From assembly GCA_963845565.1 (NCBI GenBank), contig CAWJSJ010000005.1:288001-352000 (forward strand): a DNA stretch of 64,000 nucleotides, given 5' to 3'. This document shows, piece by piece, positions 6,818 to 33,917 of the stretch (position 1 is its first letter; each line of letters begins with the position of its first letter). The DNA comes from an uncultured Methylomirabilota bacterium. GTDB lineage: Bacteria > Methylomirabilota > Methylomirabilia > Methylomirabilales > 2-02-FULL-66-22. The notes below the pieces were generated by a model, which made no database searches, was not told the DNA's origin, and was given only the letters and a program-made list of their open reading frames with translations. The position numbers and the translations under genes are program-made.

Positions 6818-6860
6818 GCACGGCCGACCTTCCGGCGATGTCTGCGTAGTTGCTTGAGCA

Positions 6861-6900
6861 AGAGGGGGGCACCTCGGCGGTGCCCTCCTTGCCTTTTTCT
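6861..6900 (+). terminator. Probable intrinsic terminator
   Basis: Hairpin gggcacc-tcggc-ggtgccc followed by T-rich tract after stop at 6817. Confidence 0.5.
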
Positions 6901-7216
6901 TGTTTGTGGTAACGCGACGCCCTTATACACCCGAAGAATCCCCTCGCGTGAGACTCCGAGGAGTGCGAGGTGCAGTCAGGGCAGAAGATGTATGCGGTCA
7001 TCGCCATTCGGCGTTTCGACTGCCCCCGTCCGAATACGCCCCACTCCCGATGGTCGAAGGACCGCTGCGAGAGGTTCGTTGCTCCTTTGCTTCTTTCGGA
7101 TGAACATTCGGCGTCGACGAACGAATGGGTCGGCCGATAGCGCCGATACGCCGAATTGCCCGCCCCGCGCAGCCGCCGCACGACCTCCAGGGCCCGTCAT
7201 GGGATCTTCTCGCCGC

Positions 7217-7234
7217 GTTCACACCGCTGTAACC
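7217..7234 (+). promoter_or_regulatory. Pho-box-like site upstream of pstS
   Basis: GTTCACA-ccgc-TGTAACC, half sites 11 bp apart. Confidence 0.5.
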
Positions 7235-7327
7235 GCCTCGGAAGAGAGTCAATCGCTCTTGGCCGAAGAACGCTGTTCCACCGACGACTCCCCAGCGCCG
7301 TGTGGGGACGAACCTTGGGAGGGAACC

Positions 7328-8209
7328 ATGAGGAAGACGACGGGCATCGCGCTGGTGTTGGCAGTCATGCTGTGCGGTATCGGGATTTCCCAGCCGTTCG
7401 CGGCCGAGTTTGACGGGACGCTCCGCATCGGCGGGTCGACGACGCTGCTCCCGGTCGTCGCGGATGCCGCGAGCCAGTTTATGGAAAAGTATGGCACCTG
7501 GGACAAGGCCGACGCCTCGCTGCCGAAGAAGCAGGCCCTGATCTTCGTCACCGGCGGCGGTTCCGGGTTCGGCGTCAACGCGGCGATCAGCGGGACCGTC
7601 GACCTCGGGATGAGCTCGCGCGATCTCAAGGATGCCGAAAAGACGAAGCTCGGCGATCACAAAGAGGTCCTCGTCAGCAAGGACTGCATCGCGTTCGCGG
7701 TGAACAAGAAGAGCCCCCTGGCCAAGCTGGACAACCTGACAAAGGCCGACGTCGTCAAGATCTTCTCGGGCGAGGCGAAGACGTTCAAGGACGTCCGATC
7801 CGACCTTCCCGCGAAGCTGATCGTCGTTCTGATGCGCGACATGGCCGGCGGCTCGACCGAGATGCTCCAGGGGATGGTCCTGAAGGAGAAGTCCTTCTCG
7901 CCGTCGGCGATTCAGGTTCCGTCACAAGGGGCCAACATGAAGAAGGTCGAGGAAAACACGTGGGCGATCACTTACATCTCGTCCGTCATCGCGCTCCAGA
8001 ACCCGAAACTGAAGGTCCTCAAGTATGAGGGGATCGCGCCGACAAACGAAAACGTGGTCGCGGGGACGTATCCCCTCACGCGCCCGCTGCTCCTTCTCGC
8101 GAAGGGCGCGCCGTCCGCCGCGGGGCAGCGGTTTATCGATTATATGCTCAATGAGGGGCAGTCGGTCATCCTCGAGCACGGGTATGTTCCCGTCAAGAAA
8201 GCGATGTGA
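7328..8209 (+). CDS. pstS: PstS-family phosphate(-like) substrate-binding protein
   Basis: Signal peptide, GGSTTLLP, TGGGSGFG, MSSRDLK, GTYPLTRPL; GGAGGG RBS. Confidence 0.85.
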   Translation: MRKTTGIALVLAVMLCGIGISQPFAAEFDGTLRIGGSTTLLPVVADAASQFMEKYGTWDKADASLPKKQALIFVTGGGSGFGVNAAISGTVDLGMSSRDLKDAEKTKLGDHKEVLVSKDCIAFAVNKKSPLAKLDNLTKADVVKIFSGEAKTFKDVRSDLPAKLIVVLMRDMAGGSTEMLQGMVLKEKSFSPSAIQVPSQGANMKKVEENTWAITYISSVIALQNPKLKVLKYEGIAPTNENVVAGTYPLTRPLLLLAKGAPSAAGQRFIDYMLNEGQSVILEHGYVPVKKAM

Positions 8210-9135
8210 GACGGGGGTCGGGTTGCGGTCTAGGGCCGTTTGTGCCGCCCGGCGATCTGTCGGTCCGGGACCGGCTCCTCCGGTCGGCGTGCCTGGTGTC
8301 CCTGGCCGTCGGAGGGGGGACCCTCTTTCTGACCGTCGGGTATCTCTTCCTCGAGTCGGGGGCGGCGTCCGGGCTCTCGTCCCGCTTCGTCGACTGTTTC
8401 CGGGGAACGTGGAGGCCGCTGGCCACGCCGCCGTCGCTGGGGCTAGCGCATGCGTGGGCCTCGACGCTGGTCGTGACGGGAATCGCGCTCGCGATTGCTC
8501 TCCCCCTCGGCGTCTCGATCGGCCTCTTTCTCGCGGAGGTTGCCCCGCTGTGGCTCCGTCGGGCACTGACCCCGGCCATGGAGCTTCTGGCCGGCATCCC
8601 GGCGGTGGTGTTCGGCTTCTTCGGGGCGGTCACGTTGGTGCCGCTCGCCGAATGGCTCTTTGAGCTCCCCACCGGGGAGACGCTGCTCGGCGCGGGGATC
8701 GTCCTGTCGGTCATGATGGTCCCCTTTGTCGCGAGCACCTCGGGCGAGGCGTTCCGCGCGGTGTATCGCGAATACCGGGAGGCCGCGTTCTCCCTCGGCG
8801 TCGACGCGTTTTACGCCTTCCGCCGCGTGGTTCTCGTCCGGGCGATGCCGGGCCTCATGGCGGCGGCGGCGCTGGGACTGGCGCGCGGCCTGGGGGAGAC
8901 GCTCGCAGTCCTCATGCTCTCGGGGAACACGACCGAGTTTCCGGCCTCGGTGATCAGTCGCGGACAGCCCCTCACGGCGCTGCTCGCCACCGAGGTTGGC
9001 GAGACGGCGGTGCACTCGGCGAAGTACCACATGCTCTTCACCGGGGCCCTGGCGCTGATGCTGATGGTGCTCCTCGTGAACCTGTTGATCGCCCTGCTGA
9101 AGAAGCGGCTCTACCGAGGACTCCATGCGGTCTGA
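8206..9135 (+). CDS. pstC: Phosphate ABC transporter permease PstC
   Basis: ELLAGIPAVVFG, EAA motif YREAAFSLG, ARGLGETLAV. Confidence 0.88.
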   Translation: MRRGSGCGLGPFVPPGDLSVRDRLLRSACLVSLAVGGGTLFLTVGYLFLESGAASGLSSRFVDCFRGTWRPLATPPSLGLAHAWASTLVVTGIALAIALPLGVSIGLFLAEVAPLWLRRALTPAMELLAGIPAVVFGFFGAVTLVPLAEWLFELPTGETLLGAGIVLSVMMVPFVASTSGEAFRAVYREYREAAFSLGVDAFYAFRRVVLVRAMPGLMAAAALGLARGLGETLAVLMLSGNTTEFPASVISRGQPLTALLATEVGETAVHSAKYHMLFTGALALMLMVLLVNLLIALLKKRLYRGLHAV

Positions 9136-9980
9136 ACCCGCGTCCGTCGGGAGGCGCCGTCTCGGAAACACGGTGTTTCTCGGCATGATCTGGGTCTCCG
9201 GCGTCGTCGGGATCCTTCTCCCGGCGAGTATCGTGGTCCACCTGCTCGCCAACGGGGGGAAGCTCCTCGATCCGTCGTTCCTGCTGGACCGGCCCCGAGG
9301 CACCCCGCTCGGCTCCGCCGGAGGCATCTTCCCGGCGATAGCAGGCAGCGTCTCCCTCGTGGGCATCGGCCTCGCCGTCGCATTCCCCATGGCGATCGGC
9401 GGCGCGCTCTACCTGTCGGAGTTCAGCCGCTCCGCGCGCGGGACCCGGGCGGCACGGCTCGTCATCGAGTCGCTCGCGGCCGTCCCGTCGATCGTCTACG
9501 GCCTCTTCGGCTACGCGTTCTTCGTCGTGCTCCTTCGGATGGGGACGTCGCTGGCGGCGGGGAGCCTCGTGCTGGCCATCGTGATGTTTCCGATCATCCT
9601 GATCACAGCACAGGAGGCGTTCGACGCGGTTCCGCGGGACTACCGCGAGGCGGCGCTGGCACTCGGCGTCGACCGGTACGAGTGGGTCCTCCGCGTATTG
9701 CTCCCGAAGTCGGCGACGCGCATATCTGGCCGGCGTCGTGCTGGCGGTCGGGCATGCGGTGGGGTCGGCCGCCCCGATCCTGTTCACCGCGGCGGTTTTC
9801 TTCTCGGCGGGCGGAATCCAACTCGACCGCCCGGTCATGACGCTGCCGACCCATCTCTACTTCCTGGTGTCGGAGGCCGTGTCGTTCCCGAACGCCTATG
9901 GGACCGCCTCGGTCCTGGTGGTCGGTCTGTTCCTCTTCAACGCCGCGGCGATGGCGCTGCGAAACATGGGCCGGGAGTGA
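9125..9980 (+). CDS. pstA: Phosphate ABC transporter permease PstA; frameshift near 9725
   Basis: GGIFPAIAGS, LAAVPSIVYGLFG, YREAALALG; C-terminus continues in ORF 9738..9980 (TLPTHLYFL). Confidence 0.85.
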
Positions 9981-9984
9981 GGCG

Positions 9985-10749
9985 ATGAGAAACGGGTCCC
10001 TGTTCGAGGTCCGAGAGCTCCAGGTAAACTACGGCGAGCGCAAGATCCTGCACGAGGTCAGCACCGACATCCCCGAAGGCGCGGTGACGGCGATCCTCGG
10101 GCCCTCGGGGTGCGGGAAGTCGACGCTCCTGCGCGCCATGAACCGCACGCTGGAACTGATCCCGCACGCCCGCATCGCGAAGGGGTCGATCCGGTTCCGG
10201 GGCACCGACCTGATGTCGCATCCGGCCGGCCCGCACCGGATCCGCAAGCGGATCGGCATCGTCCAGCAGCGCCCACTGCCGTTCCCGATGTCGATCCAGG
10301 ACAACGTGCTCTTCGGTGCCCGCTACCACGAGCGGCTCGCGGCCGGGGAGAGGCGGGAGCTGGTCGAGACGCATCTCGCCCGCGTGGGGCTGTGGGAGGA
10401 GGTGAAGGACCGCCTGAAGGCACCCGGCAATGCCTTGTCGATCGGCCAGCAGCAGCGGCTCTGCATTGCGCGCTCCCTCGCCAACCGGCCCGAGGTGCTG
10501 CTGATGGACGAGCCGTGCTCGGCGCTCGACCCGGCCTCCACGGCGAAGATCGAGGAGCTGATCCTCGGGCTGCAGGACGAGGTCACCGTCGTGATCGTCA
10601 CGCACAATCTCGCGCAAGCGCGCCGCGTCTCCTCGCGCTGCCTGTTCTTCCTCGCCGGCACGCTGGCGGAGCAAGGGGACACGGGGCAGGTCCTGACCGC
10701 CCCGTGCCACCCGGGCGTCCGGGCGATCGTCAGCGGGCAGGAGGGATGA
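9985..10749 (+). CDS. pstB: Phosphate ABC transporter ATP-binding protein PstB
   Basis: GPSGCGKST, PFPMSI, LSIGQQQRLCIAR, DEPCSALDP, VTHN. Confidence 0.92.
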   Translation: MRNGSLFEVRELQVNYGERKILHEVSTDIPEGAVTAILGPSGCGKSTLLRAMNRTLELIPHARIAKGSIRFRGTDLMSHPAGPHRIRKRIGIVQQRPLPFPMSIQDNVLFGARYHERLAAGERRELVETHLARVGLWEEVKDRLKAPGNALSIGQQQRLCIARSLANRPEVLLMDEPCSALDPASTAKIEELILGLQDEVTVVIVTHNLAQARRVSSRCLFFLAGTLAEQGDTGQVLTAPCHPGVRAIVSGQEG

Positions 10750-11882
10750 CCATGCGCCTCGAACGCGGGCAGTTGTGCGTTGTGGTGATGATCGACGGGT
10801 TCGGGATGGACTATTATCGCGCGTCGGAGATGCCGGTGCTGAAACGGATGGCCCGGGACGGCTTCTTCCGCGAGGGGTCGGCCGTCTTCCCGACGCTGAC
10901 GAACGCGAACAACCTCTCGATCGTCTGCGGCGCCTTTCCGGAGACCCACGGCGTCACGACGAACTGTTACCTCGATCCGGCCACCAACCGACCGGCATTC
11001 CTGGAGGACCCGGGGTTCCTGAAGAGCCCGACCCTGTTCGACGTCGCCGCACGTCGCGGGATCCGCTCGGCGCTGGTGACGTCGAAGTCGAAGACCGTGC
11101 GCATCCTCGGCCCGTCGGTCGCGGTCGGTGTTGCCGTGCAGGACCCCGACCCGGCGACGATCGCGCGATTCGGGACGCCGCCCGACATCTACTCCGTCGA
11201 GGCGAACGAGTGGATCATGCGCACCGGCCTGCGAATCCTCGAGGAGGAGCCGGACATCGGGGTCCTGTACGTCCACACGACCGACTACCCGATGCACATG
11301 TGGGGGCCGGACGCCCTCCAGTCGCTCGACCACCTGGCGCGGCTCGACTGGCTGATCGGGGAGATGGTCGAGCGGCATCCGGATGCTGCCTTCCTCGTCA
11401 CGGCCGACCACGGGATGAACCCGAAGTCGGATTGCCTGGACCTCGAGACGATCCTCAGCGCCGCTGGGTTCCCGATCAAGGCCGCGATCTCGCCGGTAGC
11501 CGACCGGCTCGTGAAGCACCATGGCGGCCACGGTGGGGTGTCGTACGTCTACCTGTCAGACCGGGGCGCCCGCGCCGACGTCATTGAATTCCTCAGGGGC
11601 CTTCCCGGCGTCGACCGGGTGCTTCCATCCGAGGCGGCCGCGGTCGCGTACCGTCTGGACGCGGACCGCATCGGCGACGTCGTCGTCGGGGCCGACCACG
11701 ACACGGTGTTCGGCTCCGTCGGCCACGACCGGGTCTCCCTTGATCCCGGGTATCGCAACCACGGCTCCCGGTTTGAGGCTGAGATTCCGTTGATCGCGTG
11801 GAACGCGCCGCTTCGCCCCGGCGACGACATCCGGTTCAACCTCGATCTCACCCGGGCGGTTTTCTTCGATGAAACCGCCTGA
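10746..11882 (+). CDS. Alkaline-phosphatase-superfamily hydrolase, phosphonoacetate hydrolase (PhnA)-like, copy 1
   Basis: IDG, FPTLTNANN (Thr nucleophile; PhnA has PSFTNPNN), TTDYPMH, TADHGM, NHGS. Confidence 0.8.
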   Translation: MTMRLERGQLCVVVMIDGFGMDYYRASEMPVLKRMARDGFFREGSAVFPTLTNANNLSIVCGAFPETHGVTTNCYLDPATNRPAFLEDPGFLKSPTLFDVAARRGIRSALVTSKSKTVRILGPSVAVGVAVQDPDPATIARFGTPPDIYSVEANEWIMRTGLRILEEEPDIGVLYVHTTDYPMHMWGPDALQSLDHLARLDWLIGEMVERHPDAAFLVTADHGMNPKSDCLDLETILSAAGFPIKAAISPVADRLVKHHGGHGGVSYVYLSDRGARADVIEFLRGLPGVDRVLPSEAAAVAYRLDADRIGDVVVGADHDTVFGSVGHDRVSLDPGYRNHGSRFEAEIPLIAWNAPLRPGDDIRFNLDLTRAVFFDETA

Positions 11883-11898
11883 GGGAGGCATAGCGCGC

Positions 11899-13020
11899 AT
11901 GCAACACCAGCGGCTCGTCATCGGGATGATGGATGGACTAGGGTTGCCTACGTATCGGGCGTCCCGGATGCCGACGCTCAACCGCATGGAGCGCCACGCC
12001 AACCTGTTCGCCGCCGTGGCGGGCGTCTTCCCGAGCGTCACGAACGTGAACAACGTATCGATCGCGTGCGGGAGCTGGCCCGTGGAGCACGGGATCACCG
12101 CGAACTCTTACTACGACCCCACTGAGGCGCGGGCCGTCTACATGAACGACGCCTCGCTGATCCTTGTCAAGACGCTCTTCCAGCGCGCGGCCGAATGGGG
12201 GGTTCGCTCCGCGCTGCTCACGAGCAAGCGGAAGACGGCTGAGCTGTTTCGCGCGGGGACGGAGATCTTGCTGGCCGCCGAGGCGCCCGATCCGGCGTTC
12301 GTCGAGCGGTACGGGCCGCCCGCCGGAATTTACAGTCGCGAGATCAATTACTGGCTCTGGGACGTCGCCGTCGATTTGCTACGCACCCGTCCGGACATCG
12401 GACTGCTCTACGTCCACACGACGGACTACCCGATGCACGCGTGGGCGGAATCCGCCGCCGAATCGCTGGAGCATCTGGAGGAGGTGGACCGTCGGGTGGG
12501 GGAGGCGATCGAGGCGGCGCCCGACGCGGCCTTCCTCGTCACCGCCGACCACGGGATGAACAACAAGACGCGCTGCTACGACCTCGAGAAGGTCTGCCGC
12601 GACGCGGGGCGCCCGGTGCGCTTCGTCCTGTCGCCGGAGCGGGACTACTACATCGTCCATCACCGGAACTTCACCGGCTGCTCGTGGATTTGGCTCGAGC
12701 GGGAGGAGGACCGGGAGGCCGTCCGCGGGGTGGTTTCCGGTCTGCCGGGCGTGGAGCGCGTGGTGGACTCGGCCGACGCGGCGCGCGAGTTCCGGACCGA
12801 CCCCGCCCGCATCGGCGACCTTGTCGTCTTCGGCGACCGCGACACGATGTTCGGCGAGATGGAGCGTGCGGTCGAGGAGTTACCCGCGACGTACCGCGCG
12901 CACGGCTCGATGCACGAAATGGAATTGCCGCTCATCATCTACAACTACCGGCATCCGCTCCCCCCGCCGGCGTTCTTCCGCCACAACCTCGACCTGACGC
13001 GGTTCCTCTTCCGCGCGTAG
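11899..13020 (+). CDS. Alkaline-phosphatase-superfamily hydrolase, PhnA-like, copy 2
   Basis: MDG, FPSVTNVNN, TTDYPMH, TADHGM, AHGS; alternative start 11869. Confidence 0.8.
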   Translation: MQHQRLVIGMMDGLGLPTYRASRMPTLNRMERHANLFAAVAGVFPSVTNVNNVSIACGSWPVEHGITANSYYDPTEARAVYMNDASLILVKTLFQRAAEWGVRSALLTSKRKTAELFRAGTEILLAAEAPDPAFVERYGPPAGIYSREINYWLWDVAVDLLRTRPDIGLLYVHTTDYPMHAWAESAAESLEHLEEVDRRVGEAIEAAPDAAFLVTADHGMNNKTRCYDLEKVCRDAGRPVRFVLSPERDYYIVHHRNFTGCSWIWLEREEDREAVRGVVSGLPGVERVVDSADAAREFRTDPARIGDLVVFGDRDTMFGEMERAVEELPATYRAHGSMHEMELPLIIYNYRHPLPPPAFFRHNLDLTRFLFRA

Positions 13021-20062: not shown

Positions 20063-21082
20063 ATGCCGGACCTTGCGCCGCTCAAGTTCGCCGTCATCGG
20101 AATCGACCACCCCCACATCTATGAGCAGGTGGCTCACCTGCTCGAACTGGGGTGTGAGTGCGCAGGATGGTACACGGATGGCGAGCCGCGCCCGCTCGAG
20201 GGGTTTCGGCGGCAATTCCCGCAGCTCGAACGGGTCAATGACCGCCGACGGCTCCTCGAGAATCCCGCGGTCGCGCTCATCGTCACGGCGGCCGTCCCCG
20301 ACCTCCGTGCGGGCATTGCCGTTGACGCCATGGCGCATGGCAAGGACGTGATGACGGACAAGCCTGGCTGTACGACGCTCGGACAACTGGACGAGGTGCG
20401 GCGCACCCAGGCCGCGACCGGGCGCATCTGGTCCGTCTGCTTTTCGGAGCGTTTCGCGGTCCGCGCCGTCACCCGAGCCGCCGAGCTCATCGTCCAAGGC
20501 GCGATAGGCCATGTCGTCAATGTGGTGGGGCTCGGTCCGCACCGCCTGAACAAGCTTCAGCGACCAGCCTGGTTCTTCGACCGCGCGCGCTACGGCGGCA
20601 TCCTCTGCGACCTGGCGTCGCATCAAATAGACCAGTTTCTCTATCTGACCGGTTCCGTTGGTGCCAGCGTCGTCGCCAGCGCCGTGGCAAACTACGCCAA
20701 CCCGGATTGCCCCGGCTTGGAAGATCTCGGAGAGGTCTGGCTGCGGGGCGAGCGGGCCACCGGCTACGCGCGCGTCGATTGGTACACACCCAACGGTCTC
20801 AACACCTGGGGGGACGGCCGGCTGACGATCCTCGGAACCGAGGGCTTCATCGAAGTGCGGAAGTACGTCGACGTCGCCGGTCGCGAAGGCGGGGACCATC
20901 TGTTCCTTGCCACCCAGAAAGAGACGCGGTACATCAATTGCGCCGACGCCTCTCTACCCTACTATCCCAGCCTTGTCCGCGATGTGCGTGAGCGCACAGA
21001 AACGGCGATGGCACAATCGCATTGCTTCAAGGTGATGGAACTGGCACTGACAGCGCAAGCGCAGGCCACCCGCCTGAACTGA
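20063..21082 (+). CDS. Gfo/Idh/MocA-family oxidoreductase
   Basis: GIDHPH, GKDVMTDKP, GGILCDLASHQ, WGDGR. Confidence 0.9.
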   Translation: MPDLAPLKFAVIGIDHPHIYEQVAHLLELGCECAGWYTDGEPRPLEGFRRQFPQLERVNDRRRLLENPAVALIVTAAVPDLRAGIAVDAMAHGKDVMTDKPGCTTLGQLDEVRRTQAATGRIWSVCFSERFAVRAVTRAAELIVQGAIGHVVNVVGLGPHRLNKLQRPAWFFDRARYGGILCDLASHQIDQFLYLTGSVGASVVASAVANYANPDCPGLEDLGEVWLRGERATGYARVDWYTPNGLNTWGDGRLTILGTEGFIEVRKYVDVAGREGGDHLFLATQKETRYINCADASLPYYPSLVRDVRERTETAMAQSHCFKVMELALTAQAQATRLN

Positions 21083-21190
21083 TTCGGCCGCGCCCAAGGA
21101 CAGTTCCGACATCGACCGGACCCGCTGTGGCTCTGAGGTCTGCTACGCACGGCATTCTAGCGTTGCTCCGCTCGATCCGTCGTCAACAAA

Positions 21191-21219
21191 CTTAACGCCT
21201 TTGTCACGGCGCGCTAACA
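21191..21219 (+). promoter_or_regulatory. Pho-box-like triple direct repeat
   Basis: TTAAC(21192), GTCAC(21203), CTAAC(21214) at exact 11-bp phase ~80 bp before ATG 21298. Confidence 0.55.
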
Positions 21220-21297
21220 CTTGCACGCTCAAATACGCGTGGCAATTCGGGACAGAGCTCGCCTAGTCGCGAACCCGGGAGATTGGCGGGAGGACGG

Positions 21298-23736
21298 ATG
21301 GGAGACGACGCGTTCGATGTGGCGCCCGGACGGCATCCCGTATCGGCGCAGGCGGCGCTGACGATCCTCGGCGTCCGCGGGAATGACGCCACGCATCTGC
21401 TGCAGGCGCTGCCATTCTCGCGGGACGACGCCACGGCGGGAGTCGAGAACGAGCTCCAGGCGGTCGTGCTGGGGGGCACGGGGGATGTGGATTTGCCCTG
21501 CACTATCCGCGAGTCCAATTACTACGCCAACTGCGTCAAGCGGCGCGCGGCAGGCACCATCGGACGCCAGGGCATTCGCGGGTTGGAGCGCTACCTCGAC
21601 CAGAACCCGGACGGCGTGTGGGAGAACAGTTGGGTCCGATTTCCGGCGCGGGTCCTCAGTCCCACCGCGCGGGACACGCTGGATTTCGACCTGCTGGCCG
21701 ACAAGACCAATCCCGGCCAGGGGCAGCGGGACGATGCCGGTCGCTTCTTCTTCCACGCCGCGGGGGAAGAGTGGATTCGCGTTCCGATCAGTTACCTCCT
21801 CAAGCTGTCGCTGGCGGACGTCCTGGGCTCCGGCCCCGGTGTGTCCGCGACGATTCAGCAGGCCGGACGCGGGCTTCTCGATCACTTCTCCAACGACAAC
21901 ACCTCGCCGGAGATCCAGTCCTTTTTTGTCATTCCTCTCTCTGCCGCCGGCGGCATGGGGAAGGCGGTGGCGCGCGAGACGGCCAAGCGCTTCCTTCTGA
22001 CGCAGCTCCTGACGTCCTACGCGAATCTCAAATTCGAGTTGGCCGCCCGCGGCCAGCGGGCCTTGGTGTATTTCGCACCCCATCCGCCCGTCCGCCAGCG
22101 GGAGCTGAACGATTGCGTGGCCGACGCGTTCTACCGGGACCTCTTCATGAGTCCCTGCCTTTCCGGGTGGAGCTGCGGGGAAGCCAAGCAGCAATACATG
22201 CACATGTGCCACCGGGTCTTGAGCCGGAGCCAGCTCAACGCCGTGGCGAAGCTTCGCGAAGCCGGCATCATCGTGAATGACCTGATCGTGCTTCCGACCA
22301 CGTCCAACATCAGCCTGGCCAACAACGGGACGCACGTCAGTCTGGGCAGCACCATGCTCTCCCGCGCCCTGGGTGAGGCCGGGCGTGGTTTCACGCCCGC
22401 CCACGAGAAACTGCTCGGGGATCTGGCGATCAAAATGGTCGAGCACTTCCTTCCGCTCTTCGTCGGAACCTACACCGCCGATCCCTACCGCTTGGCGTTC
22501 TCGGACTTTCACCCGGAACGCGTCCTGGGATACCTCCCCCACGAGCTGGATTACACGCACCTTCGCATGCTCTGGCAGCGGTGGCGCAAGAAGGCCAAGC
22601 TGCGCGTCCTGGGTCGTCCGCTGACGCCGTTTGGCCCGCGATGGATTGACGACCTGTTGGCGCGCGTGTTCCGCCTCCGGGGCGACCTGGTTACGGATTT
22701 CCGGCTGCTGGACTATCTGGTGGCGCTGATGAGCACGGATCGGAGTCCGGGACTCGATGGCCGCCTCGGAAACTGGGACCGCCTGAAAAAGGATCTCGCC
22801 GACCTGGGGGTGTTTGACGGCCGGATGGCGATGTATGTCCCCTACCGGCTCCGGGAGCACGCCCGTGTGGGTTTCTCGGGGTTCGAAGGCCGTTACTACA
22901 GCCAGTTCGACGGTTTCGCGCAGGACCTGGGGCAGGCGGTCAATCTGCAACTGCTCGTGACCGCCCTGGCGTTCAAGTATATGGCGCAGGGACGGTTCGA
23001 CCACGCCGATATCCCCGACGATCCGACCCTGGAGAGCGAGCGCCGGCAACTCTTCTTTGCGACGGCGATCGGAGTGCCCAGCGTCTTCGTGCATGTGAAT
23101 ACGCGTAACCGGTTTCTCCGGGCGATCCTGGAGCGAGCCAAGGGGGTGCGGGCGAGCCGGCGCCACGCGGGGTACCTGCGGGTGCGGACGCGAGAGTATC
23201 AACGCGCCCTGCTGCGAATCCTTCGATCGGATGCGGCGGACCTCGCGGAGGCCTTGGGCCTGGAGTCCACGCTTGACGACCTGGCGCTCCGGCTGGAATA
23301 CCCCGAGGAACGCTCCGCTGCGGGCCGGTTGACCCGCGGCATTCTCGACAAGGCGGGCGCGGCCTCGGCCCTCGGCCTCGACGCGCGGGAGTTCAACCTC
23401 TGCGCCGAGTCGCACTACCGCGAGGATCTCCGTCGGCGACAGATGGCAGAAGCGCTGGAAGTGCTGGCGGAGGACCTCCGGATGCTTGACCGCCGGGCGG
23501 TCGCCGTCGGCCAGGCGGGGGGCCTGCGCGCGGCGGCCGGCGAGCGAGGCGGCGCCGCGTTTGTGGCCGGAGTTCGCGACGACATCCTGCGGGAGCGAGC
23601 GTCCCTGGAGGACGTGCAGCGCCTGGTCGCACTGCTGGTGCTCAGCGTTCACCATGACACGAAAGAGGCGGAGCGACATCTTCATGCGCCGACACCCGTG
23701 GCGGCCTCTGCGCCATCAATATATCGAGCGGCATAG
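21298..23736 (+). CDS. Large hypothetical protein (~812 aa) with glutamine synthetase/glutamate-cysteine ligase-like catalytic motifs
   Basis: GGGAGGA RBS; GVENELQ (ExE), TSPE, NNGTHVSLG (GxH), FEGR (ExR) in GS/GCS order; the function call is an inference. Confidence 0.6.
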   Translation: MGDDAFDVAPGRHPVSAQAALTILGVRGNDATHLLQALPFSRDDATAGVENELQAVVLGGTGDVDLPCTIRESNYYANCVKRRAAGTIGRQGIRGLERYLDQNPDGVWENSWVRFPARVLSPTARDTLDFDLLADKTNPGQGQRDDAGRFFFHAAGEEWIRVPISYLLKLSLADVLGSGPGVSATIQQAGRGLLDHFSNDNTSPEIQSFFVIPLSAAGGMGKAVARETAKRFLLTQLLTSYANLKFELAARGQRALVYFAPHPPVRQRELNDCVADAFYRDLFMSPCLSGWSCGEAKQQYMHMCHRVLSRSQLNAVAKLREAGIIVNDLIVLPTTSNISLANNGTHVSLGSTMLSRALGEAGRGFTPAHEKLLGDLAIKMVEHFLPLFVGTYTADPYRLAFSDFHPERVLGYLPHELDYTHLRMLWQRWRKKAKLRVLGRPLTPFGPRWIDDLLARVFRLRGDLVTDFRLLDYLVALMSTDRSPGLDGRLGNWDRLKKDLADLGVFDGRMAMYVPYRLREHARVGFSGFEGRYYSQFDGFAQDLGQAVNLQLLVTALAFKYMAQGRFDHADIPDDPTLESERRQLFFATAIGVPSVFVHVNTRNRFLRAILERAKGVRASRRHAGYLRVRTREYQRALLRILRSDAADLAEALGLESTLDDLALRLEYPEERSAAGRLTRGILDKAGAASALGLDAREFNLCAESHYREDLRRRQMAEALEVLAEDLRMLDRRAVAVGQAGGLRAAAGERGGAAFVAGVRDDILRERASLEDVQRLVALLVLSVHHDTKEAERHLHAPTPVAASAPSIYRAA

Positions 23737-24715
23737 CGCCGCAGTCCGGACCGAGCGTCTGTACGGCGACCGGATCGTCTCCTTTCTCTACGCCGACCTC
23801 TGGGAGAAGGGACCGGCGCTCTATTCGCTGCTCACGGCGACCTGGACGTCGCGCCTGCTCGGTTTTCTCAACTACGATTCCCTGCTGGGGGCGAGGGCTG
23901 GAGGGACGGGGGAGTTTTTGAAGCGGAGCGGCGTGGACCTCGGCGAGTGTCTGGAAGCGCCCGACCGTCTCGATACGGCCCGCAAGCTGTTCGAGCGCCA
24001 GATCCGCTATTGGGACTGCCGCCCCATGCCGGACCAGCCCGACATCGCCGTCTGTCCCGCCGACGCCCGGGTCTTGGTAGGCTCGCTGAGCGAGGTGTCG
24101 AGCCTGTACCTCAAGGACAAGTTTTTCGACCTGGAGGAACTGCTGGGAAGAGACCGGCGGTCGTGGTGCCGGGTGTTCGAGGCGGGAGACTTCGCCATTC
24201 TGCGTCTGACGCCGGAGAAGTACCACTACACCCACGTGCCCGTGGCTGGACGCGTGGCGACCATCTACGAGATCCCGGGCCGGTACCATTCCTGCAACCC
24301 GGGCGCAGTGGTGGCGGTGGTCACCCCACACTCCAAGAACCGGCGCGTGGTGACGATCCTCGATACGGACGTGCCCGGCGGATCGGAGGTCGGGGCGGTG
24401 GCGATGATCGAGGTGGCGGCCCTGATGATCGGCGACATTGCGCAGTGCTACAGTGCCGAGCACTATCGGACGCCACAGTCGGCGGCACCCGGGATGTTCC
24501 TGCGGAAAGGGGCGCCCAAGAGCTTGTTCCGGCCGGGCGGCAGCACGGTGGTGCTGCTCTTCGAGCCTGGGCGCGTGGTCTTCGCCGAGGACATCGTCCG
24601 CAACATGTCGCGGGCGGGCGTCGAGAGCCGCTTCGCGGCCGGGTTCGGGCGACCGTTGGTGGAGACGGACGTGATGGTGCGCTCCCCGCTGGCCCGGGCC
24701 GCGCGCCGTCGGTAG
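23684..24715 (+). CDS. Phosphatidylserine decarboxylase-family pyruvoyl enzyme
   Basis: CPADAR, RLTPEKYHYTHVPVAG, KNRRVV, autocleavage motif FRPGGST; overlaps upstream gene. Confidence 0.88.
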   Translation: MRRHPWRPLRHQYIERHSAAVRTERLYGDRIVSFLYADLWEKGPALYSLLTATWTSRLLGFLNYDSLLGARAGGTGEFLKRSGVDLGECLEAPDRLDTARKLFERQIRYWDCRPMPDQPDIAVCPADARVLVGSLSEVSSLYLKDKFFDLEELLGRDRRSWCRVFEAGDFAILRLTPEKYHYTHVPVAGRVATIYEIPGRYHSCNPGAVVAVVTPHSKNRRVVTILDTDVPGGSEVGAVAMIEVAALMIGDIAQCYSAEHYRTPQSAAPGMFLRKGAPKSLFRPGGSTVVLLFEPGRVVFAEDIVRNMSRAGVESRFAAGFGRPLVETDVMVRSPLARAARRR

Positions 24716-24753
24716 GCCGGGAGACGCGGCGACGCACCGACAGGAGGCTCGTC

Positions 24754-25806
24754 ATGGTCAACGATCTGTTCCTCTTCGTGGTGGCGGCCCTTTCGATCTG
24801 GGTGTTGATCTGGGGGTTCCGCACCCTGCCGCAGGAGCAATGGCAGATTGCGGCGGCGATTCCCGTCGCGAAGACCGCGGCGGGGCAGTGGCAGGGGCTC
24901 AATCTGACCTACTACGGTTTGTTCCATGCCGGCGCCTACGCCGCGGGCGTCGCCATGATGCTGGTTCTGCTGGGGGCGGTGGGGGTCTCGCTCCCCGGTA
25001 TCATCACCATGGTCCTCCTGGTCTTGGGGTGCTGCATTCCTGCGTCGAAATTGGTGGCGCGTGTCGTCGAGCGAAAGGCGGCCACATTCACGGTCGGGGG
25101 GGCGGTGTTCGTCGGGATCCTGGTGTGCCCCTGGTTGCTCTTGGGAGCGAATCGCGCCCTCGGGCCGTTCCTGGGGTTCGAGATCCCCGTGACGGCCGGG
25201 CTGGCGGCGGCGTCCATCGGGTACGCCCTGGCGGAAGGTGTGGGTCGCCTGGCGTGCGTGAGCTTCGGCTGCTGCTACGGCAAGCCCGTGTCTCAGATCT
25301 CGCCTCGCCTCCGCCGACTCTTCGAGCGGTACAGCTTCGTCTTCACGGGACAGACCAAGAAGGTGGCCTACGAGGGAGGTTTGGAAGGTGAGAAGGTCGT
25401 CCCGGTCCAGGCGATCACGGCAGTGCTCTTCGTCACCACGGCGCTCATCGCTGCGGAGGTCTTCCTGCGTGGACACCACCGCACGGCCCTGGGCCTCTCC
25501 TTGGCGGTCACCCAAGGCTGGCGGGCGGTATCCGAAACGCTCCGGGCGGATCATCGTGGAGGCGGCAGGGTCAGCGCGTATCAGGTCATGGCAATCCTGG
25601 CCATCGTGTACCTATTCACGGCGCTGCCATTCATCCCTGCCGGGTCCGGGCTCGAGGCCGACATCCTGACGGGGCTTCGAGTGCTGTGGGATCCGTGGGT
25701 GATTCTCTTTCTGCAGGGTTTGTGCCTCGCCATCTTCCTGCGCACCGGCCGAAGCGTGGTGACCGGGGCGACGCTGTCCTTTCACGTCCGGCGGGACCGA
25801 ATCTAG
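24754..25806 (+). CDS. Prolipoprotein diacylglyceryl transferase (Lgt)-like membrane protein, divergent
   Basis: Multi-TM; TYYG, GRLACVSFGCCYGKP, PVQ, WRAVSETLR align with Lgt motifs; AGGAGG RBS. Confidence 0.75.
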   Translation: MVNDLFLFVVAALSIWVLIWGFRTLPQEQWQIAAAIPVAKTAAGQWQGLNLTYYGLFHAGAYAAGVAMMLVLLGAVGVSLPGIITMVLLVLGCCIPASKLVARVVERKAATFTVGGAVFVGILVCPWLLLGANRALGPFLGFEIPVTAGLAAASIGYALAEGVGRLACVSFGCCYGKPVSQISPRLRRLFERYSFVFTGQTKKVAYEGGLEGEKVVPVQAITAVLFVTTALIAAEVFLRGHHRTALGLSLAVTQGWRAVSETLRADHRGGGRVSAYQVMAILAIVYLFTALPFIPAGSGLEADILTGLRVLWDPWVILFLQGLCLAIFLRTGRSVVTGATLSFHVRRDRI

Positions 25807-25830
25807 GTCAATGCATCCCCGTCCCGTGTG

Positions 25831-26697
25831 ATGTCGTTGCCCATCTCACGCGAAACGCACCCTACGCGCTGGAGCGATCGCGCGCGGCGCGCCCGACGCG
25901 CCGGGATGCTGTTGGGCGCCCTCTTGTCAGGTTGCCTCGAAACCGACCTCGCGCACGCCGATCGGGGATCGCACATCCCCCCGGTCGCGGCGGTCGAAAC
26001 TGGAGAGTACCTGGCCCGCGACGACCGGACCGGGGTGGAACTCTGGCGACATGGCTGGACCATCGAGCGGCACATCCAGCCTGACGGTGCAACCCTCCGG
26101 GTTCACCAGGAAGGACGGGGCCGCCGAGGGCGCTCGGCGCCGACGGCATGGGTCGCCGAGACGCATGTGACGCTCCTCGGCGGTGGTTACCGGCTTTCGT
26201 CTTGGCGCGAGGTCCGCGACGCTCAGGGCGCGCTCGTCGAAACGGAGAAGCGGGATCTGGACTCGACCACGGGCGCCGGTCTGGTCGCCATCCGGGACGC
26301 TCGCTCCTGGCGCACTAGCGTTCGCCGCGTCCACGTGACGCGAGGCTCCGTCGATCTGGAAATGCTTCCGGTGGAATTACGTCTGCTCCCCGGCCGGGCG
26401 GACAAGCGGTTTCGATTCGAGTTGATCATGGCGGGGGGAGAGGTGGTCGGCATGGAGGCCACGATCGTGGGCCGCGAGGTGGTCGAGGCGCCCGCGGGGA
26501 CCTTCGAATGCTACCGCATCGAGCTCACGGCGACCGGGGCCTTGGGCCTCGTGGCAGGTCTCGTGCTTCCCAAGACGACACTGTGGCATACGGTGGCGCC
26601 TCCCCACGTCTGGGTGAAGCACCGGGGCCCCGAGGGAGGCGTGGGTTCTCGGGTGATCATCAGGGAACTGACGCGGTTCGAACGGCAAGCCGAATGA
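25831..26697 (+). CDS. Putative lipoprotein, DUF3108-like beta-rich fold
   Basis: Basic n-region RARRARR, hydrophobic stretch, lipobox LSGC; VEAPAGTFECYRIE motif. Confidence 0.6.
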   Translation: MSLPISRETHPTRWSDRARRARRAGMLLGALLSGCLETDLAHADRGSHIPPVAAVETGEYLARDDRTGVELWRHGWTIERHIQPDGATLRVHQEGRGRRGRSAPTAWVAETHVTLLGGGYRLSSWREVRDAQGALVETEKRDLDSTTGAGLVAIRDARSWRTSVRRVHVTRGSVDLEMLPVELRLLPGRADKRFRFELIMAGGEVVGMEATIVGREVVEAPAGTFECYRIELTATGALGLVAGLVLPKTTLWHTVAPPHVWVKHRGPEGGVGSRVIIRELTRFERQAE

Positions 26698-26712
26698 CCT
26701 CCGACCCGGTCA

Positions 26713-26742
26713 TGGTCACGGAATCTTCACAGGTCCGTCATC
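26713..26742 (+). promoter_or_regulatory. Pho-box-like triple direct repeat upstream of ppx
   Basis: GTCAC(26715), TTCAC(26726), GTCAT(26737) at exact 11-bp phase. Confidence 0.65.
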
Positions 26743-26776
26743 GTCTTCTCCCTGAGCCGCTGTTAGCATCCACGAC

Positions 26777-27763
26777 ATGACAAGATTGCTCGCTCTCATT
26801 GAGTTGGGATCCAACGCGACCCGCTTGCTGCTCGCGGAAGTGACGATGGGCGCCGGATACCGGGTGCTACAGCAGAAGCGGGTACAGACTCGCCTCGCCG
26901 GCGGCCCGGAGCGCGAACTTCCTCGTCGGGCGGTGCGCGACACCTTGGCGGCGGTGCGGGGCTTCGTCCGCTCGTTTCGCAGCGGGAACGGGGTCAGCAC
27001 GATCGCCGTCGCGACGGCAGCCGTGCGCGACGCCGAGAATCGGGCCACTCTCCTGAATCCCCTGATCCATAAGTACGGTCTCAACGTGGTGGTCCTCAGC
27101 CCGCACGACGAAGCATGCCTCGGGACGCTCGCCGTCCTCCACCATCTGCCGATGCGGGATGGGCTCGTGGCCGACCTGGGAGGCGGGAGCCTCCAGCTCA
27201 CCAGCGTCCGCGCGGGCAGAGTCGAGGACACCGCGAGTCTGCCTATCGGGGCAGTTCGGATGACCGAGCGCTTCCTCCGGGGTGATCCGCCAGCGGCAGC
27301 GGAAGTCAAGGCGCTGCGGTCGGAGGTCCGGGAACGGCTGCATCGGGCGATGCCATTCCTGGAGTGCCGCGGACGCCTGGTTGGCATCGGCGGCACCGTC
27401 CGGGCTTTGGCGAGTTTGCAGCTGGCCGCGCGGACCGACGAGGCGATGCGACATGGACTCCGCCTCAGTCAGGACGACATCGTCGCCGTGCGAGCGCGCG
27501 TGGAGGCGCTACCGTTGAGCCGTCGCCAATGCGTCCCGGGCCTCAGGCCAGAACGAGCCGACATCATCGTGGCCGGGGCCCTCGTCGTCGAGGAATTGGT
27601 CCGGGCGTCGGGATACCCGGAACTTACGGTGTGTACCTTCGGCGTGCGAGACGGTTACCTGATCCGTCGCACCTTTCCCGACTCCTGGCCGCTACATGGC
27701 CCGGCACCCGTGGTCGCCGAGGCAATGGCGGCCGCGGGTTCGGGCGCTCGACGGTGCGCCTAA
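26777..27763 (+). CDS. ppx: Ppx/GppA exopolyphosphatase family (short form, no HD domain)
   Basis: ELGSN, ATAAVRDAEN, DLGGGS, GIGGT, RADII, GVRDG. Confidence 0.88.
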   Translation: MTRLLALIELGSNATRLLLAEVTMGAGYRVLQQKRVQTRLAGGPERELPRRAVRDTLAAVRGFVRSFRSGNGVSTIAVATAAVRDAENRATLLNPLIHKYGLNVVVLSPHDEACLGTLAVLHHLPMRDGLVADLGGGSLQLTSVRAGRVEDTASLPIGAVRMTERFLRGDPPAAAEVKALRSEVRERLHRAMPFLECRGRLVGIGGTVRALASLQLAARTDEAMRHGLRLSQDDIVAVRARVEALPLSRRQCVPGLRPERADIIVAGALVVEELVRASGYPELTVCTFGVRDGYLIRRTFPDSWPLHGPAPVVAEAMAAAGSGARRCA

Positions 27764-27844
27764 ATTCCACTCGGTCGGCGCCGAACGTGGGCGGCCGAGT
27801 GGCCTACCCACCGCGGGAATCTCCTCATAATCATAAGGGCTCTC

Positions 27845-27920
27845 GGCGGCAAGCTCCTTCCTGTCGGGCATGGCGCACGTTCCGTTGAAGACGGCGCCTT
27901 CTTGAATCACCAGCAGAAGC
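27845..27920 (-). pseudogene. Orphan C-terminal fragment of a bactofilin gene
   Basis: LLVIQEGAVFNGTCAM matches the last beta-helix turn of polymer-forming cytoskeletal proteins; N-terminal part absent. Confidence 0.5.
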
Positions 27921-27941
27921 CGGCGCGAGCCCGCGCCGCGT

Positions 27942-28217
27942 TCATCCTGGCGGGTTCCGCCGAAACGAATGTTCCAAGTGCTTGCGCAGCGCAGCGATCA
28001 GCGCTTCGTCAGGAACCCTCCTCAGGATCATCTGTACGGTGAAGCCGCACACGCGGCAACGCTTGTACACGTATTCCCATCGCTCTCCGCGCTGTGCGTC
28101 GCCGATCTCTTCCATGGCAGAGAAGCAGCACGGTCCCGAATCCGCCGGGGAGACGATGTGCCAAGGGTAGAGGTTTTCCGGCAGCTTCTTGTTGGTGTAC
28201 TCGACGATGGTGGGCAT
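27942..28217 (-). CDS. Small hypothetical Zn-ribbon-like protein
   Basis: AAGGAGG RBS; CC...CxxC cysteines; 91 aa. Confidence 0.7.
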   Translation of the reverse strand: MPTIVEYTNKKLPENLYPWHIVSPADSGPCCFSAMEEIGDAQRGERWEYVYKRCRVCGFTVQMILRRVPDEALIAALRKHLEHSFRRNPPG

Positions 28218-28373
28218 GGCGTCCTGCCTCCTTGTTGCTTTCGCGGGAAGTGCGTCCGCCGGGGGCGAAGCATGGGTGGAGCGTGAAGGTTGACGCTGTA
28301 CCGCGCCTCAGGCGCCATCCGGTCGTCGCGTACCCGGTCGTGGTATACCGCAACTCCAACCCTTCTTTCAGGG

Positions 28374-28790
28374 TCAAGAAAGCGGGGCGAAGGTCTGGGC
28401 TCCGAGCGGGCTGTCGCATTCGCCACGCACTAACCCCGTGATGATGAGGTCCGCGGTTGCGAGGTTGGTGGCCAGAGGCACGTTGTGCACGTTGCAGACG
28501 CGCATCAGCGCCTGGATGTCGGGATCGTGGGGTTGGGCGGTCAGCGGGTCCACAAAGAAGAAGACCGCGTCGATTTCGTTCGAGCCGACGCGGGCGGCGA
28601 TCTGGACGTCACCGCCCTGCGGGCCGCTGAGCACGGTTTCGACCTCGATTCCCACCTTCTCCTTCAGAAATCGCCCGGTGGTCGCCGTGGCGACGAGGTG
28701 GAAGCGTCGGAGTGTCTCGCGGTTGTACGTCGCCCAGGCGAGCAGGTCCACCTTCTTATGGTCGTGCGACACCAGCGCAAGTGCTTTCAT
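28374..28790 (-). CDS. mgsA: Methylglyoxal synthase
   Basis: ALVSHDHKK, ATTG, SGPQGGD, DPLTAQPHD, PLATNLATA; GAAGGAGG RBS. Confidence 0.95.
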   Translation of the reverse strand: MKALALVSHDHKKVDLLAWATYNRETLRRFHLVATATTGRFLKEKVGIEVETVLSGPQGGDVQIAARVGSNEIDAVFFFVDPLTAQPHDPDIQALMRVCNVHNVPLATNLATADLIITGLVRGECDSPLGAQTFAPLS

Positions 28791-32173: not shown

Positions 32174-33917
32174 TTACTTCCCCAGGCCCAGGGAAAGTGC
32201 CATGACCCGGAAGACTTCCGTGTTCTCCATGAAACCGTGGATGTACTCCGATCCGGGTCCCATGGCCGTCAGGACCACATCTTCGCCCGTGTGGACGCCG
32301 GTGCTGCTGTTGCGAGGCAGGATGCCGGTGCGGAAGACGGCGCCGGGGACGTTCTTGTACTGCTCGTTGGCCACGTAGTTCTTGTCGGGCGCCTGGATCG
32401 CCGGTGTGAAGACCCCGTCCAGCTTGGGCCGGAAGGTCTCGTAGTGATCCGGGAAGTTGGCGAAGAAGATGGCGAGGCGTTTCGACACGTTCAGGTCGCC
32501 CGGGTAGCCGTCGGCATCCGGCCGCGGATAATTGGGATAGCCGGCGTCGGCGTACACGCCGACCTTGTCGCGCATCTGCTCGCCCTTGGCATTATCGTCC
32601 ACGGTGCCGACGATGGAGAGTCCGTGGCTGTGATCGGCCACGACCATGATGAGGGTGTCGTTGCGATCGGCGGCGAACTCCTTGGCCACCTTGACCGCGT
32701 TATCGAGCATGATGGTGTCCATGACCGCCCGCTCCCAGTCCAGGGGATGGGAGTACTTGTCGATGTTCCCGGATTCCACCATCAGGAAGAAGCCCTCGGG
32801 GCGGCGGGACAGGATGTCAATGGCCGCCTTCGTCTGGTCGACGAGGTCCGGCTGATCGGGGAACTTGTTCACCGTTCCCTTCTTGAGGAACTTGCGATCG
32901 AGGACGCCGTCCATATTTCCGGTGTGGAAGAGGCCGAGAAGCTTCTGGGTGCCAGGGTTGGCCGCCGCGGCCCGCATCTCCTGATCGTTGGTGGCCAGGG
33001 TATACCCGGCCTGCCGGAACTTGGCGATGTAGTCCTCGTTGTCCTTGCGGCGCGAGCCGGGCGTGGATTTGCGGCAGGAAGTTGGCGGAACCGCCGCCCA
33101 TCAAGACATCCACGCCGCTTCCGTAGAATTGCTTCACGATCTCGTCGTAGTCGCTGCGTCGCCGGGTGTGGGCCACCATGGCAGCGGGCGTCGCGTCCTC
33201 CACCTCGGTGTTCGTGACGACCCCGACCGCCATGTTCAGCTTCCGCTTCACCAGGCTGCTGATCGTCTCGACCTTGGGATCGTCCAGGGTGTCCTTGGTC
33301 CGATCGGCGTACACCCCCAGCGCGTTGACGCTGGACTTGTGGCCCGTGGCATAGGCGGCGGCGGAGTTGGCCGAGTCGGTGATGACGGAGTCAACGCCGG
33401 AGGTTCCGACCAGCGCCATGCGGGGCATGGTATCCATGGCCAGGTCGCCGTGGTATTTTCCCTCGGCGATCCCCTTGGACAGGATGCGAGCCGCAGTCCG
33501 ATGCGCGACGCTCAGGCCGTCCCCGACGAAGAGAATCACGTTCTTGGCCGTGCGGGGGCGCTCTGCGGCGAAGACCTCCCAGGTCACCACTTGGGTAAAC
33601 TCCTTGCCGTCATGGGCCACCACGCGATAATACCCCGGTTGCGTCAGGACAACGTCTCGGAGGATGAGCGCTGATTTGTCTACATCCGGTTCCTTCTCTA
33701 CGAAGGTGGCGGTTCGCCCCAGGGTCAGGGCGTAATCGGCGCCATTGATCGTCACCTTGGCTTCGCCAGGTTTCAGGACGCGGTCAAATTCCACCTTGAA
33801 ATCGAACTTCGCGCCGGCCAGAATCGTGGCGCGATGCACGGGATAGACGGTCAGAGCGTCGGCGTGCGAAGTGACGGTAACAAGGAGTGCTATCGCGAAC
33901 AGCAATCGCGTCAACAT
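32174..33917 (-). CDS. phoA: Alkaline phosphatase (PhoA family) with N-terminal extension; frameshift near 33070
   Basis: KNVILFVGDG, TDSANSA (Ser nucleophile), DATPAA, LMVESGNIDKYSH, ADHSH, HTGEDV; signal peptide. Confidence 0.9.

Follow-up and report, generated by a model that had tools for sequence, protein, structure and literature searches.

A conserved three-gene unit in a phosphate-starvation island as a candidate source of phosphorus-free cysteine lipids

Gene content of the locus and conservation of the A-B-C trio

The subject of this analysis is a gene cluster with a possible role in lipid remodelling, located in a 64,000-nucleotide stretch of DNA (hereafter the window) from an uncultured Methylomirabilota bacterium (GenBank assembly GCA_963845565.1, contig CAWJSJ010000005.1, positions 288,001 to 352,000). 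Four genes on the + strand, here named A to D, follow one another closely. Gene A (21298..23736) encodes 812 aa when read from the ATG, which is preceded by a ribosome site (GGAGGA); starting at a TTG at 21283 instead would lengthen the protein by 5 aa. Gene B (23684..24715, 343 aa) overlaps A by 53 bp, gene C (24754..25806, 350 aa) starts 38 bp after B, and gene D (25828..26697), the start of which is uncertain, lies 21 bp after C. A triple site resembling a Pho (phosphate regulon) box, CTTAAC-N5-TGTCAC-N5-GCTAAC with an 11-bp period, is found on the same strand at 21191..21219, 79 bp 5' of the A start codon, and a ppx-family exopolyphosphatase gene (26777..27763, +; PF02541, 149 bits) follows D. 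No pssA gene is adjacent. This layout is as described in the original prediction, made from the sequence alone, which had proposed a four-gene lipid-remodelling system behind an 11-bp-phased repeat and ahead of ppx.

The conserved unit consists of three genes, A-B-C, and not of four. Homologs of A form at least 2,922 protein clusters, labelled hypothetical or without a name; cultured bacteria with a named A homolog include Geobacter pickeringii, Citrifermentans bemidjiense, Desulfosarcina ovata, Desulfonema ishimotonii and Desulfococcus. Among 401 Desulfobacterales genomes (thresholds 1e-3 and 1e-20), A was present in 103 and C in 96; all 96 carriers of C also carried A, neither gene was found in 298, and the seven matches with A only were mostly partial. 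B and C followed A in each of the 40 Desulfobacterales loci retrieved, a subset of the 103 picked for long contigs in which two loci duplicate named ones, and the spacing was tight in 37. In 28 named loci from several phyla (Thermodesulfobacteriota, Acidobacteriota, Nitrospirota, Gammaproteobacteria, Lentisphaerota, Kiritimatiellota and others), B and C were present in 18, or in 16 of the 23 that extend at least 3 kb downstream. Two of the other seven held fragments of A only and five a whole A; in all four of these five that were examined (L006 was left out), B and C stood together elsewhere in the genome. Where B-C is placed apart from A, it is found behind pstS or between ppk and ppx, and A is separate from B-C in some Syntrophales-like loci. 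The A-B-C gene order is kept across phyla. The survey of gene neighborhoods that the original prediction had called for hence bears out the co-conservation of the three enzymes. Within the phylum to which the window belongs, few genomes have A (2 of 251, a tally that, like that for D below, includes G216, flagged as unpublished). A plasmid search returned no A homolog, and a tree of A, built by a quick method and with 14 of its 54 branches open, is too weak for claims on donors.

Several related loci show variations around the trio. L026 and L028 hold only fragments of A (and of B too in L026) beside pstS or phoBR-phoU, and are decayed cassettes. In Syntrophales-like genomes (L012, L013, L025 and L127-L129; four of the 28 named loci in addition to L127-L129), B and C are separated by a small dksA-like gene, which is present in none of the 40 Desulfobacterales loci. 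A 326-aa alpha/beta hydrolase is encoded near A in five loci, L002 and L004-L007 (e.g. L006:10449-11426), and is located immediately 3' on the opposite strand in the four loci with B-C elsewhere.

D and ppx are local passengers. D is an exported DUF3108-like protein (its own DUF3108 match is weak, and two homologs score above the cut-off) that was found in none of the 68 related loci; the four-gene unit was rejected for this reason, and with it the four-gene framing of the original prediction. Of the 251 genomes from the phylum, 8 have a D homolog; most of these lack A, or carry the homolog on a different contig. The D protein of the window has a lipobox-like LSGC after a short hydrophobic stretch, a feature present in none of seven homologs. 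Likewise, ppx was rejected as a member of the unit, as it was not found beside the trio in the 68 loci at 70 bits; a weaker match was present in L003, and one after C in L129.

Folds and conserved residues of the three proteins

Protein A had no match in Pfam or NCBIfam at E 0.1 and none among solved structures in single-sequence and profile searches, while protein atlas searches returned only own clusters of the families. Its AlphaFold2 model (predicted local distance difference test, pLDDT, 93.1) was closest to GshF (Z 16.1, root-mean-square deviation (rmsd) 4.1, 378 residues aligned), followed by YbdK (Z 15.5), GshA (14.8), Dop (14.4), PafA (14.2) and then glutamine synthetases. All 19 structural rows with Z of at least 6 were proteins of the glutamate-cysteine ligase (GCL), PafA or glutamine synthetase (GS) kind, and Foldseek agrees (E 5e-4); the model thus displays the GCL/GS catalytic fold. 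Carboxylate-amine ligases carry a GhExE motif on the first strand, acidic residues on the second and third, a His on the fourth, an Arg on the fifth and ExR on the sixth (PMC2588565). The corresponding residues of A, placed by motif and predicted secondary structure and not by residue-level superposition, are nearly invariant: G48, E50 and E52 (83/83), D200 and E205 (89/89), H346 (92/92), R519 (88/89), E530 (88/90) and R532 (86/88). By profile, A is neither GshA nor GCS2, and searches of its own genome for these two families (PF04262 and PF04107, respectively) were empty.

In comparison with GshA/GshF, YbdK (GCS2) and PafA/Dop, A shares the fold (Z 14-16) and the GhExE, acidic, His, Arg and ExR motifs, but differs in its low identity to them (9-16%), in the lack of a Pfam match and in large inserts. 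It is linked to lipid genes, and not to gshB or pup. Judged by the model and the conserved motifs, A is an active-looking ligase of a new family, and a gamma-glutamyl ligase is the predicted activity. One of the inserts (residues 419-460) contains on average 8.7 Lys/Arg, 1.8 Asp/Glu and 6.4 aromatic residues in 79 homologs, a conserved basic-aromatic composition which suggests that it may bind the membrane.

Protein B belongs to the phosphatidylserine decarboxylase (Psd) family PF02666 (130.8 bits, cut-off 22) and aligns with E. coli Psd, in which the triad is D90-H144-S254 (PMC7952604). D127, H181, H184 and S287 of B, the last placed by motif, are present in 60/60 homologs, so that the D-H-S triad and the cleavage serine are shared with the E. 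coli enzyme. The cleavage motif is PG-G-S287-T in the window and PG-S-S in most homologs, PG(S/G)S(T/V) standing in place of LGST. B further differs from Psd in that no pssA is nearby, in being a second copy, in scoring under all four NCBIfam Psd equivalog cut-offs, and in a proposed substrate without phosphate. The family also includes the soluble-substrate enzyme L-tryptophan decarboxylase PsiD. In a comparison with the N-terminal amphipathic membrane helices of Psd, residues 30-66 of B were found to be aromatic and basic, with modest hydrophobic moments.

The genome, which is 98.7% complete and 6.4% contaminated, encodes elsewhere an ordinary Lgt (prolipoprotein diacylglyceryl transferase) and an ordinary Psd, the latter on another contig and adjoining a CDP-alcohol phosphatidyltransferase gene. 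B and C are therefore second copies, free for another job. A standard phosphatidylethanolamine cassette was rejected, since no pssA is adjacent and the pssA-linked psd is another gene.

Protein C matches the Lgt family PF01790 with 21.4 bits, under the cut-off of 24.9. Its AlphaFold2 model (pLDDT 89.9) has nine long predicted membrane helices, an extra one at either end relative to the seven of Lgt, and the E. coli Lgt structure (5AZB/5AZC) was its only structural match with Z of at least 8 (Z 12.8, rmsd 3.9, 231 residues aligned; the next match reached 6.7). A match to ArcB in a profile search against solved structures was dismissed as chance. Y54, R165, G176, R257, E261 and R264 of C are present in 61/61 homologs, and Y26, G142, R143, G154, R239, E243 and R246 of E. 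coli Lgt all have invariant equivalents in these 61 proteins; the phosphatidylglycerol-site residues R143/R239, Y26, G154 and R246 are thus retained together with the fold. The H103GGL motif and N146 are not retained: at the position of H103 all 61 homologs have Val, Ile or Thr, and C also has Cys in place of E151. H103 and N146 are variable among distant Lgts as well (PMC13251419).

The distribution of charge in C is reversed. In E. coli Lgt the head side is periplasmic and acidic (PMC4728403). In C, Lys plus Arg amounted to 22.2 on the arm/head side against 3.0 on the opposite side, an excess observed in 61/61 homologs and still present when two long loops were left out (11.1 against 3.0). 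In 30 ordinary Lgts the respective figures were 6.7 and 9.4, with only one protein leaning in the direction of C; net charges were +12.3 (head side) and -0.6 (opposite side) for C, and -1.6 and +4.1 for the ordinary Lgts. By the positive-inside rule, C is probably inverted in the membrane with its active site in the cytoplasm, where it would meet the products of A and B, both of which lack a signal peptide. Such a placement argues against lipoprotein modification. If the lipid pathway proposed below is right, database labels naming C a prolipoprotein diacylglyceryl transferase would be corrected.

Phosphate-starvation context and upstream motif

The original prediction had suggested that linkage to Pho regulon genes be surveyed, and such linkage was found. 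Pho genes (pst, phoU, phoBR, phoH, phn, ppk and phoA were counted) occurred in 17 of the 28 named loci and 19 of the 40 Desulfobacterales loci, 36 of 68 altogether, compared to 8 of 278 19-kb tiles of the window's own genome; this baseline is a rough control, as it comes from a single genome and its queries were taken from the loci. The window itself lies in a phosphate-starvation island. The same contig carries a phoB-phoR-pstS-pstCAB-phoU-phoH cluster at a distance of 25-38 kb in the upstream direction, while ppx, phoA, phosphonate genes and a second pst operon are found inside the window.

A 22-bp motif with an 11-bp period was obtained by sampling 65 regions upstream of A homologs, the window being excluded (11.2 bits, compared to 8.5 and 8.7 in the only two shuffles made), and its best site upstream of A in the window is the one at 21191. 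With a two-unit model, 325 of 10.7 million genome positions score at least as high as this site; with a three-unit model, picked after the site had been seen, only 5 positions do so, or 37 with the genome background. Of nine pstS genes that had been held out, six have an upstream site scoring at least 10 bits, compared to 34 of 277 control intergenic regions; of eight phoH genes, only two do. An 11-bp-phased box common to pstS promoters is thus present in a genome that also encodes PhoBR, and binding of PhoB to it is predicted.

The second triple site, GGTCAC-N5-CTTCAC-N5-CGTCAT (26714..26742, +), lies directly 5' of ppx, the ATG of which is 35 bp further on; it scores 14.6, ninth genome-wide in the three-unit model. 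A TAGCAT hexamer is located 7 bp before this ATG, which has no ribosome site. It is probable that ppx is driven by its own promoter, and its transcript may, speculatively, be leaderless. A sigma-70 scan of 20900-28500 revealed neither a promoter nor an excess of terminators. Parts of the stretch are represented in five metatranscriptome runs from sediment; the four that were compared consist of assembled contigs covering parts of A-D, and are uninformative on transcription, strand, level or a joint transcript.

The phosphorus-scavenging island spans window positions 1-13020 and the 26 kb before the window (G000:C5:262000-288000), and contains phoBR, pstSCAB-phoU, phoH, the second pst operon, a metallophosphoesterase gene, two phosphonoacetate-hydrolase-like genes and a phosphonate ABC transporter with phosphonatase- and aminotransferase-like genes. 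A similar phosphonate block adjoins the trio in G011. In two loci (L004 and L006, e.g. L006:1366-4542) a GAK system, composed of ATP-grasp, HprK-related kinase and CofD-like proteins, is encoded upstream of A amid Pho genes.

Proposed route to a butyramide cysteine lipid and its alternatives

N-butyramide cysteine glycerol (BACys) lipids were described in Desulfatibacillum alkenivorans PF2803 by Ding et al. in 2024. In the portion of the article available (PMC11181052), they rise at low phosphate from less than 1% to about 65% of lipids, replacing phospholipids, with which they share the same diacyl, mixed and diether (ester and ether) cores; their diagnostic ion is C7H13O3N2S+ at 205.064. The structure is termed tentative by its authors, and that portion names no genes. 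We computed that diacylglycerol plus decarboxylated gamma-Glu-Cys minus water (plus H) reproduces 11 of 11 distinct diacyl BACys formulas; these represent 12 of the 15 dataset rows as available, the other three carrying an extra O or 2 H. Where a single oxygen is added, either a thioether oxidized to its sulfoxide or a hydroxy chain could be the cause. The computed head group minus hydride, 205.0641, equals the published diagnostic ion. The assignments of a thioether and of a 4-aminobutyryl group are ours and not from that article. A metagenome-derived protein named Desulfatibacillum sp. is an A homolog with the conserved motifs, and its locus (G409) has B and C in order; in two further genomes (G331 and G260), with an 81% identical A, a tight trio with the upstream motif was observed. 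The name D. alkenivorans did not appear among the best 120 matches for the C protein of L016 or for the A protein of the window. BACys thus has the same formulas and head-group ion as the product predicted below, is specific to phosphate starvation, and comes from a bacterial order that carries the trio.

What was observed is that the genes are linked and lie in a Pho context, that the folds and catalytic residues are conserved, that charge is asymmetric in C and that the formulas match; from this we infer the substrates, the thioether bond, the orientation of C, the Pho induction and the possible order of steps in the following scheme. A PhoB-controlled A-B-C operon would act at the cytoplasmic face of the inner membrane. 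A would form, at the expense of ATP, an amide bond between the gamma-carboxyl group of glutamate and the cysteine amine, and C, facing the cytoplasm, would transfer the diacylglyceryl (or ether-glyceryl) core of phosphatidylglycerol to the cysteine thiol, releasing glycerol phosphate into the cytoplasm for reuse; the sharing of cores between BACys and phospholipids is as expected from such a transfer. Pyruvoyl enzymes require a free alpha-amine, and since that of gamma-Glu-Cys is on the glutamyl group, its decarboxylation yields 4-aminobutyryl; B would form the pyruvoyl Schiff base with this amine and then remove the carboxyl. The zwitterionic product, N-(4-aminobutyryl)-S-diacylglyceryl-cysteine, would stand in for phosphatidylethanolamine and would most likely be the BACys lipid. 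Its predicted [M+H]+ values are 757.576 (32:0) and 783.592 (34:1); the forms that retain the carboxyl, heavier by 43.99 Da, would be at 801.566 and 827.581. A could act before C, on free cysteine, or after it, on S-diacylglyceryl-cysteine, the latter being possible because of the putative membrane-binding insert in A. We consider it highly probable that A-B-C makes a Pho-controlled phosphorus-free aminolipid of some kind, and probable that it makes N-(4-aminobutyryl)-S-diacylglyceryl-cysteine from glutamate, cysteine and phosphatidylglycerol under Pho induction. The core of the original prediction, in which ligation, decarboxylation and diacylglyceryl transfer build a phosphorus-free aminolipid under Pho control, is in this way carried forward by co-conservation, folds, catalytic residues, Pho linkage and the BACys formula match, although not in its four-gene frame.

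A number of observations weigh against this scheme. No Pho gene was present within the retrieved stretch in 32 of the 68 loci, the two-unit score of the window's site (9.7) is below the 10-bit line applied to pstS and controls, and related genomes are not independent. In A, the [HD]x[NH] and Ex[RK]xxD motifs are incomplete, with Ser at the last positions (S348 in 88/92 and S535 in 86/89 homologs), and its best fold matches lie within 2 Z units, so that cysteine as the acceptor is not fixed by the fold. B has Arg at the Y137 position and Ser at S166, and so keeps the sites at which Psd binds the phosphate of phosphatidylserine; that substrate would suit it too. In C, residues essential in E. 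coli Lgt are substituted (N146C, G145A, Y235T) and H103 is missing as well, which bears on how the thiol would be activated; the residue map was itself made via the genome's own Lgt, by a weak, motif-anchored profile alignment (hhalign probability 9.8%, E 0.0008). The formula is blind to the difference between a thioether, an ester via the cysteine carboxyl, and isomeric dipeptides. Finally, the link to the producer strain PF2803 is by genus, the genome with the trio bearing the name Desulfatibacillum sp.

Some of these points would fit a different phosphorus-free aminolipid, in which A joins another pair of amino acids or C acts on a hydroxyl or an amine, the match to BACys being coincidental. 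The unfixed acceptor of A, the loss in C of H103 (tied to the lipobox cysteine in E. coli Lgt) and the link of the trio to the producer by genus all leave room for this. We nevertheless regard it as unlikely, since the textbook reactions of the three folds give the exact BACys formula with no free parameter, BACys is specific to phosphate starvation, and the trio is found in a Desulfatibacillum sp. genome. A scenario in which the three genes are only loosely coupled within the Pho response, with B as a spare Psd, A supplying gamma-glutamylcysteine as a thiol buffer and C an inactive or unrelated membrane protein, would account for the triad and anion-binding residues of B, for the gap left by the absence of GshA and GCS2 matches in the genome, and for the loci in which A is apart from B-C. 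It seems very improbable in view of the fact that C never occurs without A in 401 genomes, that the gene order is kept across phyla and that the invariant polar residues of C match the Lgt active site; moreover, extra phosphatidylethanolamine saves no phosphorus.

The remaining alternatives involve proteins as the acceptor. One possibility is that a cytoplasmic protein or peptide is modified, with A ligating glutamate in a PafA-like manner and the inverted C lipidating a cytoplasmic cysteine; Dop and PafA are indeed among the structural matches of A, and the dksA-like gene inserted between B and C in part of the named loci and in L127-L129 might encode such a partner. The trio has no conserved small gene as a partner, however, this one being absent from the 40 Desulfobacterales loci, and a Psd-family decarboxylase under Pho control suits bulk lipid replacement better; we give this possibility very little weight. 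The original prediction had offered, as its own alternative, a dedicated modification of the adjacent lipoprotein, in which C would be an Lgt for D or for another exported protein. The position of D, co-directional and directly after C, and its LSGC sequence are in line with this, but D is not conserved with the trio, its homologs are found in genomes without A or on another contig and have no lipobox in 7 of 7 cases, an ordinary lgt is present in the genome, and the catalytic side of C is predicted to be cytoplasmic. A lipoprotein-modification system was rejected on these grounds and is, in our estimate, the least plausible of all.

Replacing phospholipid under phosphate shortage is a known strategy; the route via the trio, if right, would be a new one. 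Known substitutions include ornithine and related aminolipids, betaine lipids (BtaAB), sulfoquinovosyl lipids and PlcP-Agt glycolipids. OlsB-type aminolipids and the others share purpose and Pho control with the trio, but none is known to combine a Psd and an Lgt fold with a ligase of the GCL fold, and in the trio one enzyme would both free the phosphate head and attach the new one. The proposed pathway resembles the PssA-Psd route to phosphatidylethanolamine in its logic, since in both an anionic aminolipid loses a carboxyl at the cytoplasmic face and becomes a zwitterion. With Lgt, C shares the fold, the invariant phosphatidylglycerol-site residues and the proposed diacylglyceryl-to-thiol chemistry; it differs in the residue substitutions listed above (including E151C), in the two extra helices and the reversed charge, and in a proposed acceptor that is a small molecule, the ordinary Lgt being retained in the genome. 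The accessible part of a 2024 review of aminolipids covers amide-linked ones only (PMC11631085). Searches of an open-access library gave no account of the trio or of BACys genes, though subscription papers and supplements could contain more, and literature searches under the locus tags of five named homologs yielded no paper.

For this lipid class, which was first seen in 2024 and to which genes have yet to be assigned, A, B and C are good candidates. If this is right, genes would be assigned to lipids that make up about 65% of the total in phosphate-starved D. alkenivorans. A function would also be given to a family that comprises no fewer than 2,922 unannotated protein clusters and occurs in roughly one in four of the Desulfobacterales genomes searched. 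It would also mean that an Lgt fold works from the cytoplasmic side and has a small molecule as its acceptor, and phosphorus stress in anoxic sediments could be traced by markers of both kinds, genes and lipids. A broader picture, towards which we lean with somewhat better than even confidence, is that an Lgt fold flipped by the gain of an N-terminal helix came to serve in bulk lipid synthesis, exchanging in a single step the glycerophosphate head of existing phospholipids for a dipeptide that resembles glutathione; together with the GCL-fold ligase and Psd it would give thioether-linked zwitterionic BACys, a mimic of phosphatidylethanolamine, in thousands of anaerobic sediment bacteria, a widespread and so far unrecognised route of phosphorus recycling and organic sulfur burial.

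A few additional features were observed. A fusion of a PHP domain and a GT4 glycosyltransferase is encoded beside the trio at L027:5509-7923 and in 9 of the 40 Desulfobacterales loci, with a Pho-like box in four of the nine; it is a candidate for the synthesis of the glucuronosyl lipids that rise along with BACys. In the window, the alkaline phosphatase gene at 32174-33917 (- strand) is split into two open reading frames, and RNA contigs of related strains differ from the window by one base at 33067, and others at 30282 and 30480; several frameshifts in the window may thus be assembly errors. A 91-aa cysteine-rich protein is encoded at 27942-28217 (- strand); six paralogs occur in the genome, of which four are full-length and two partial.

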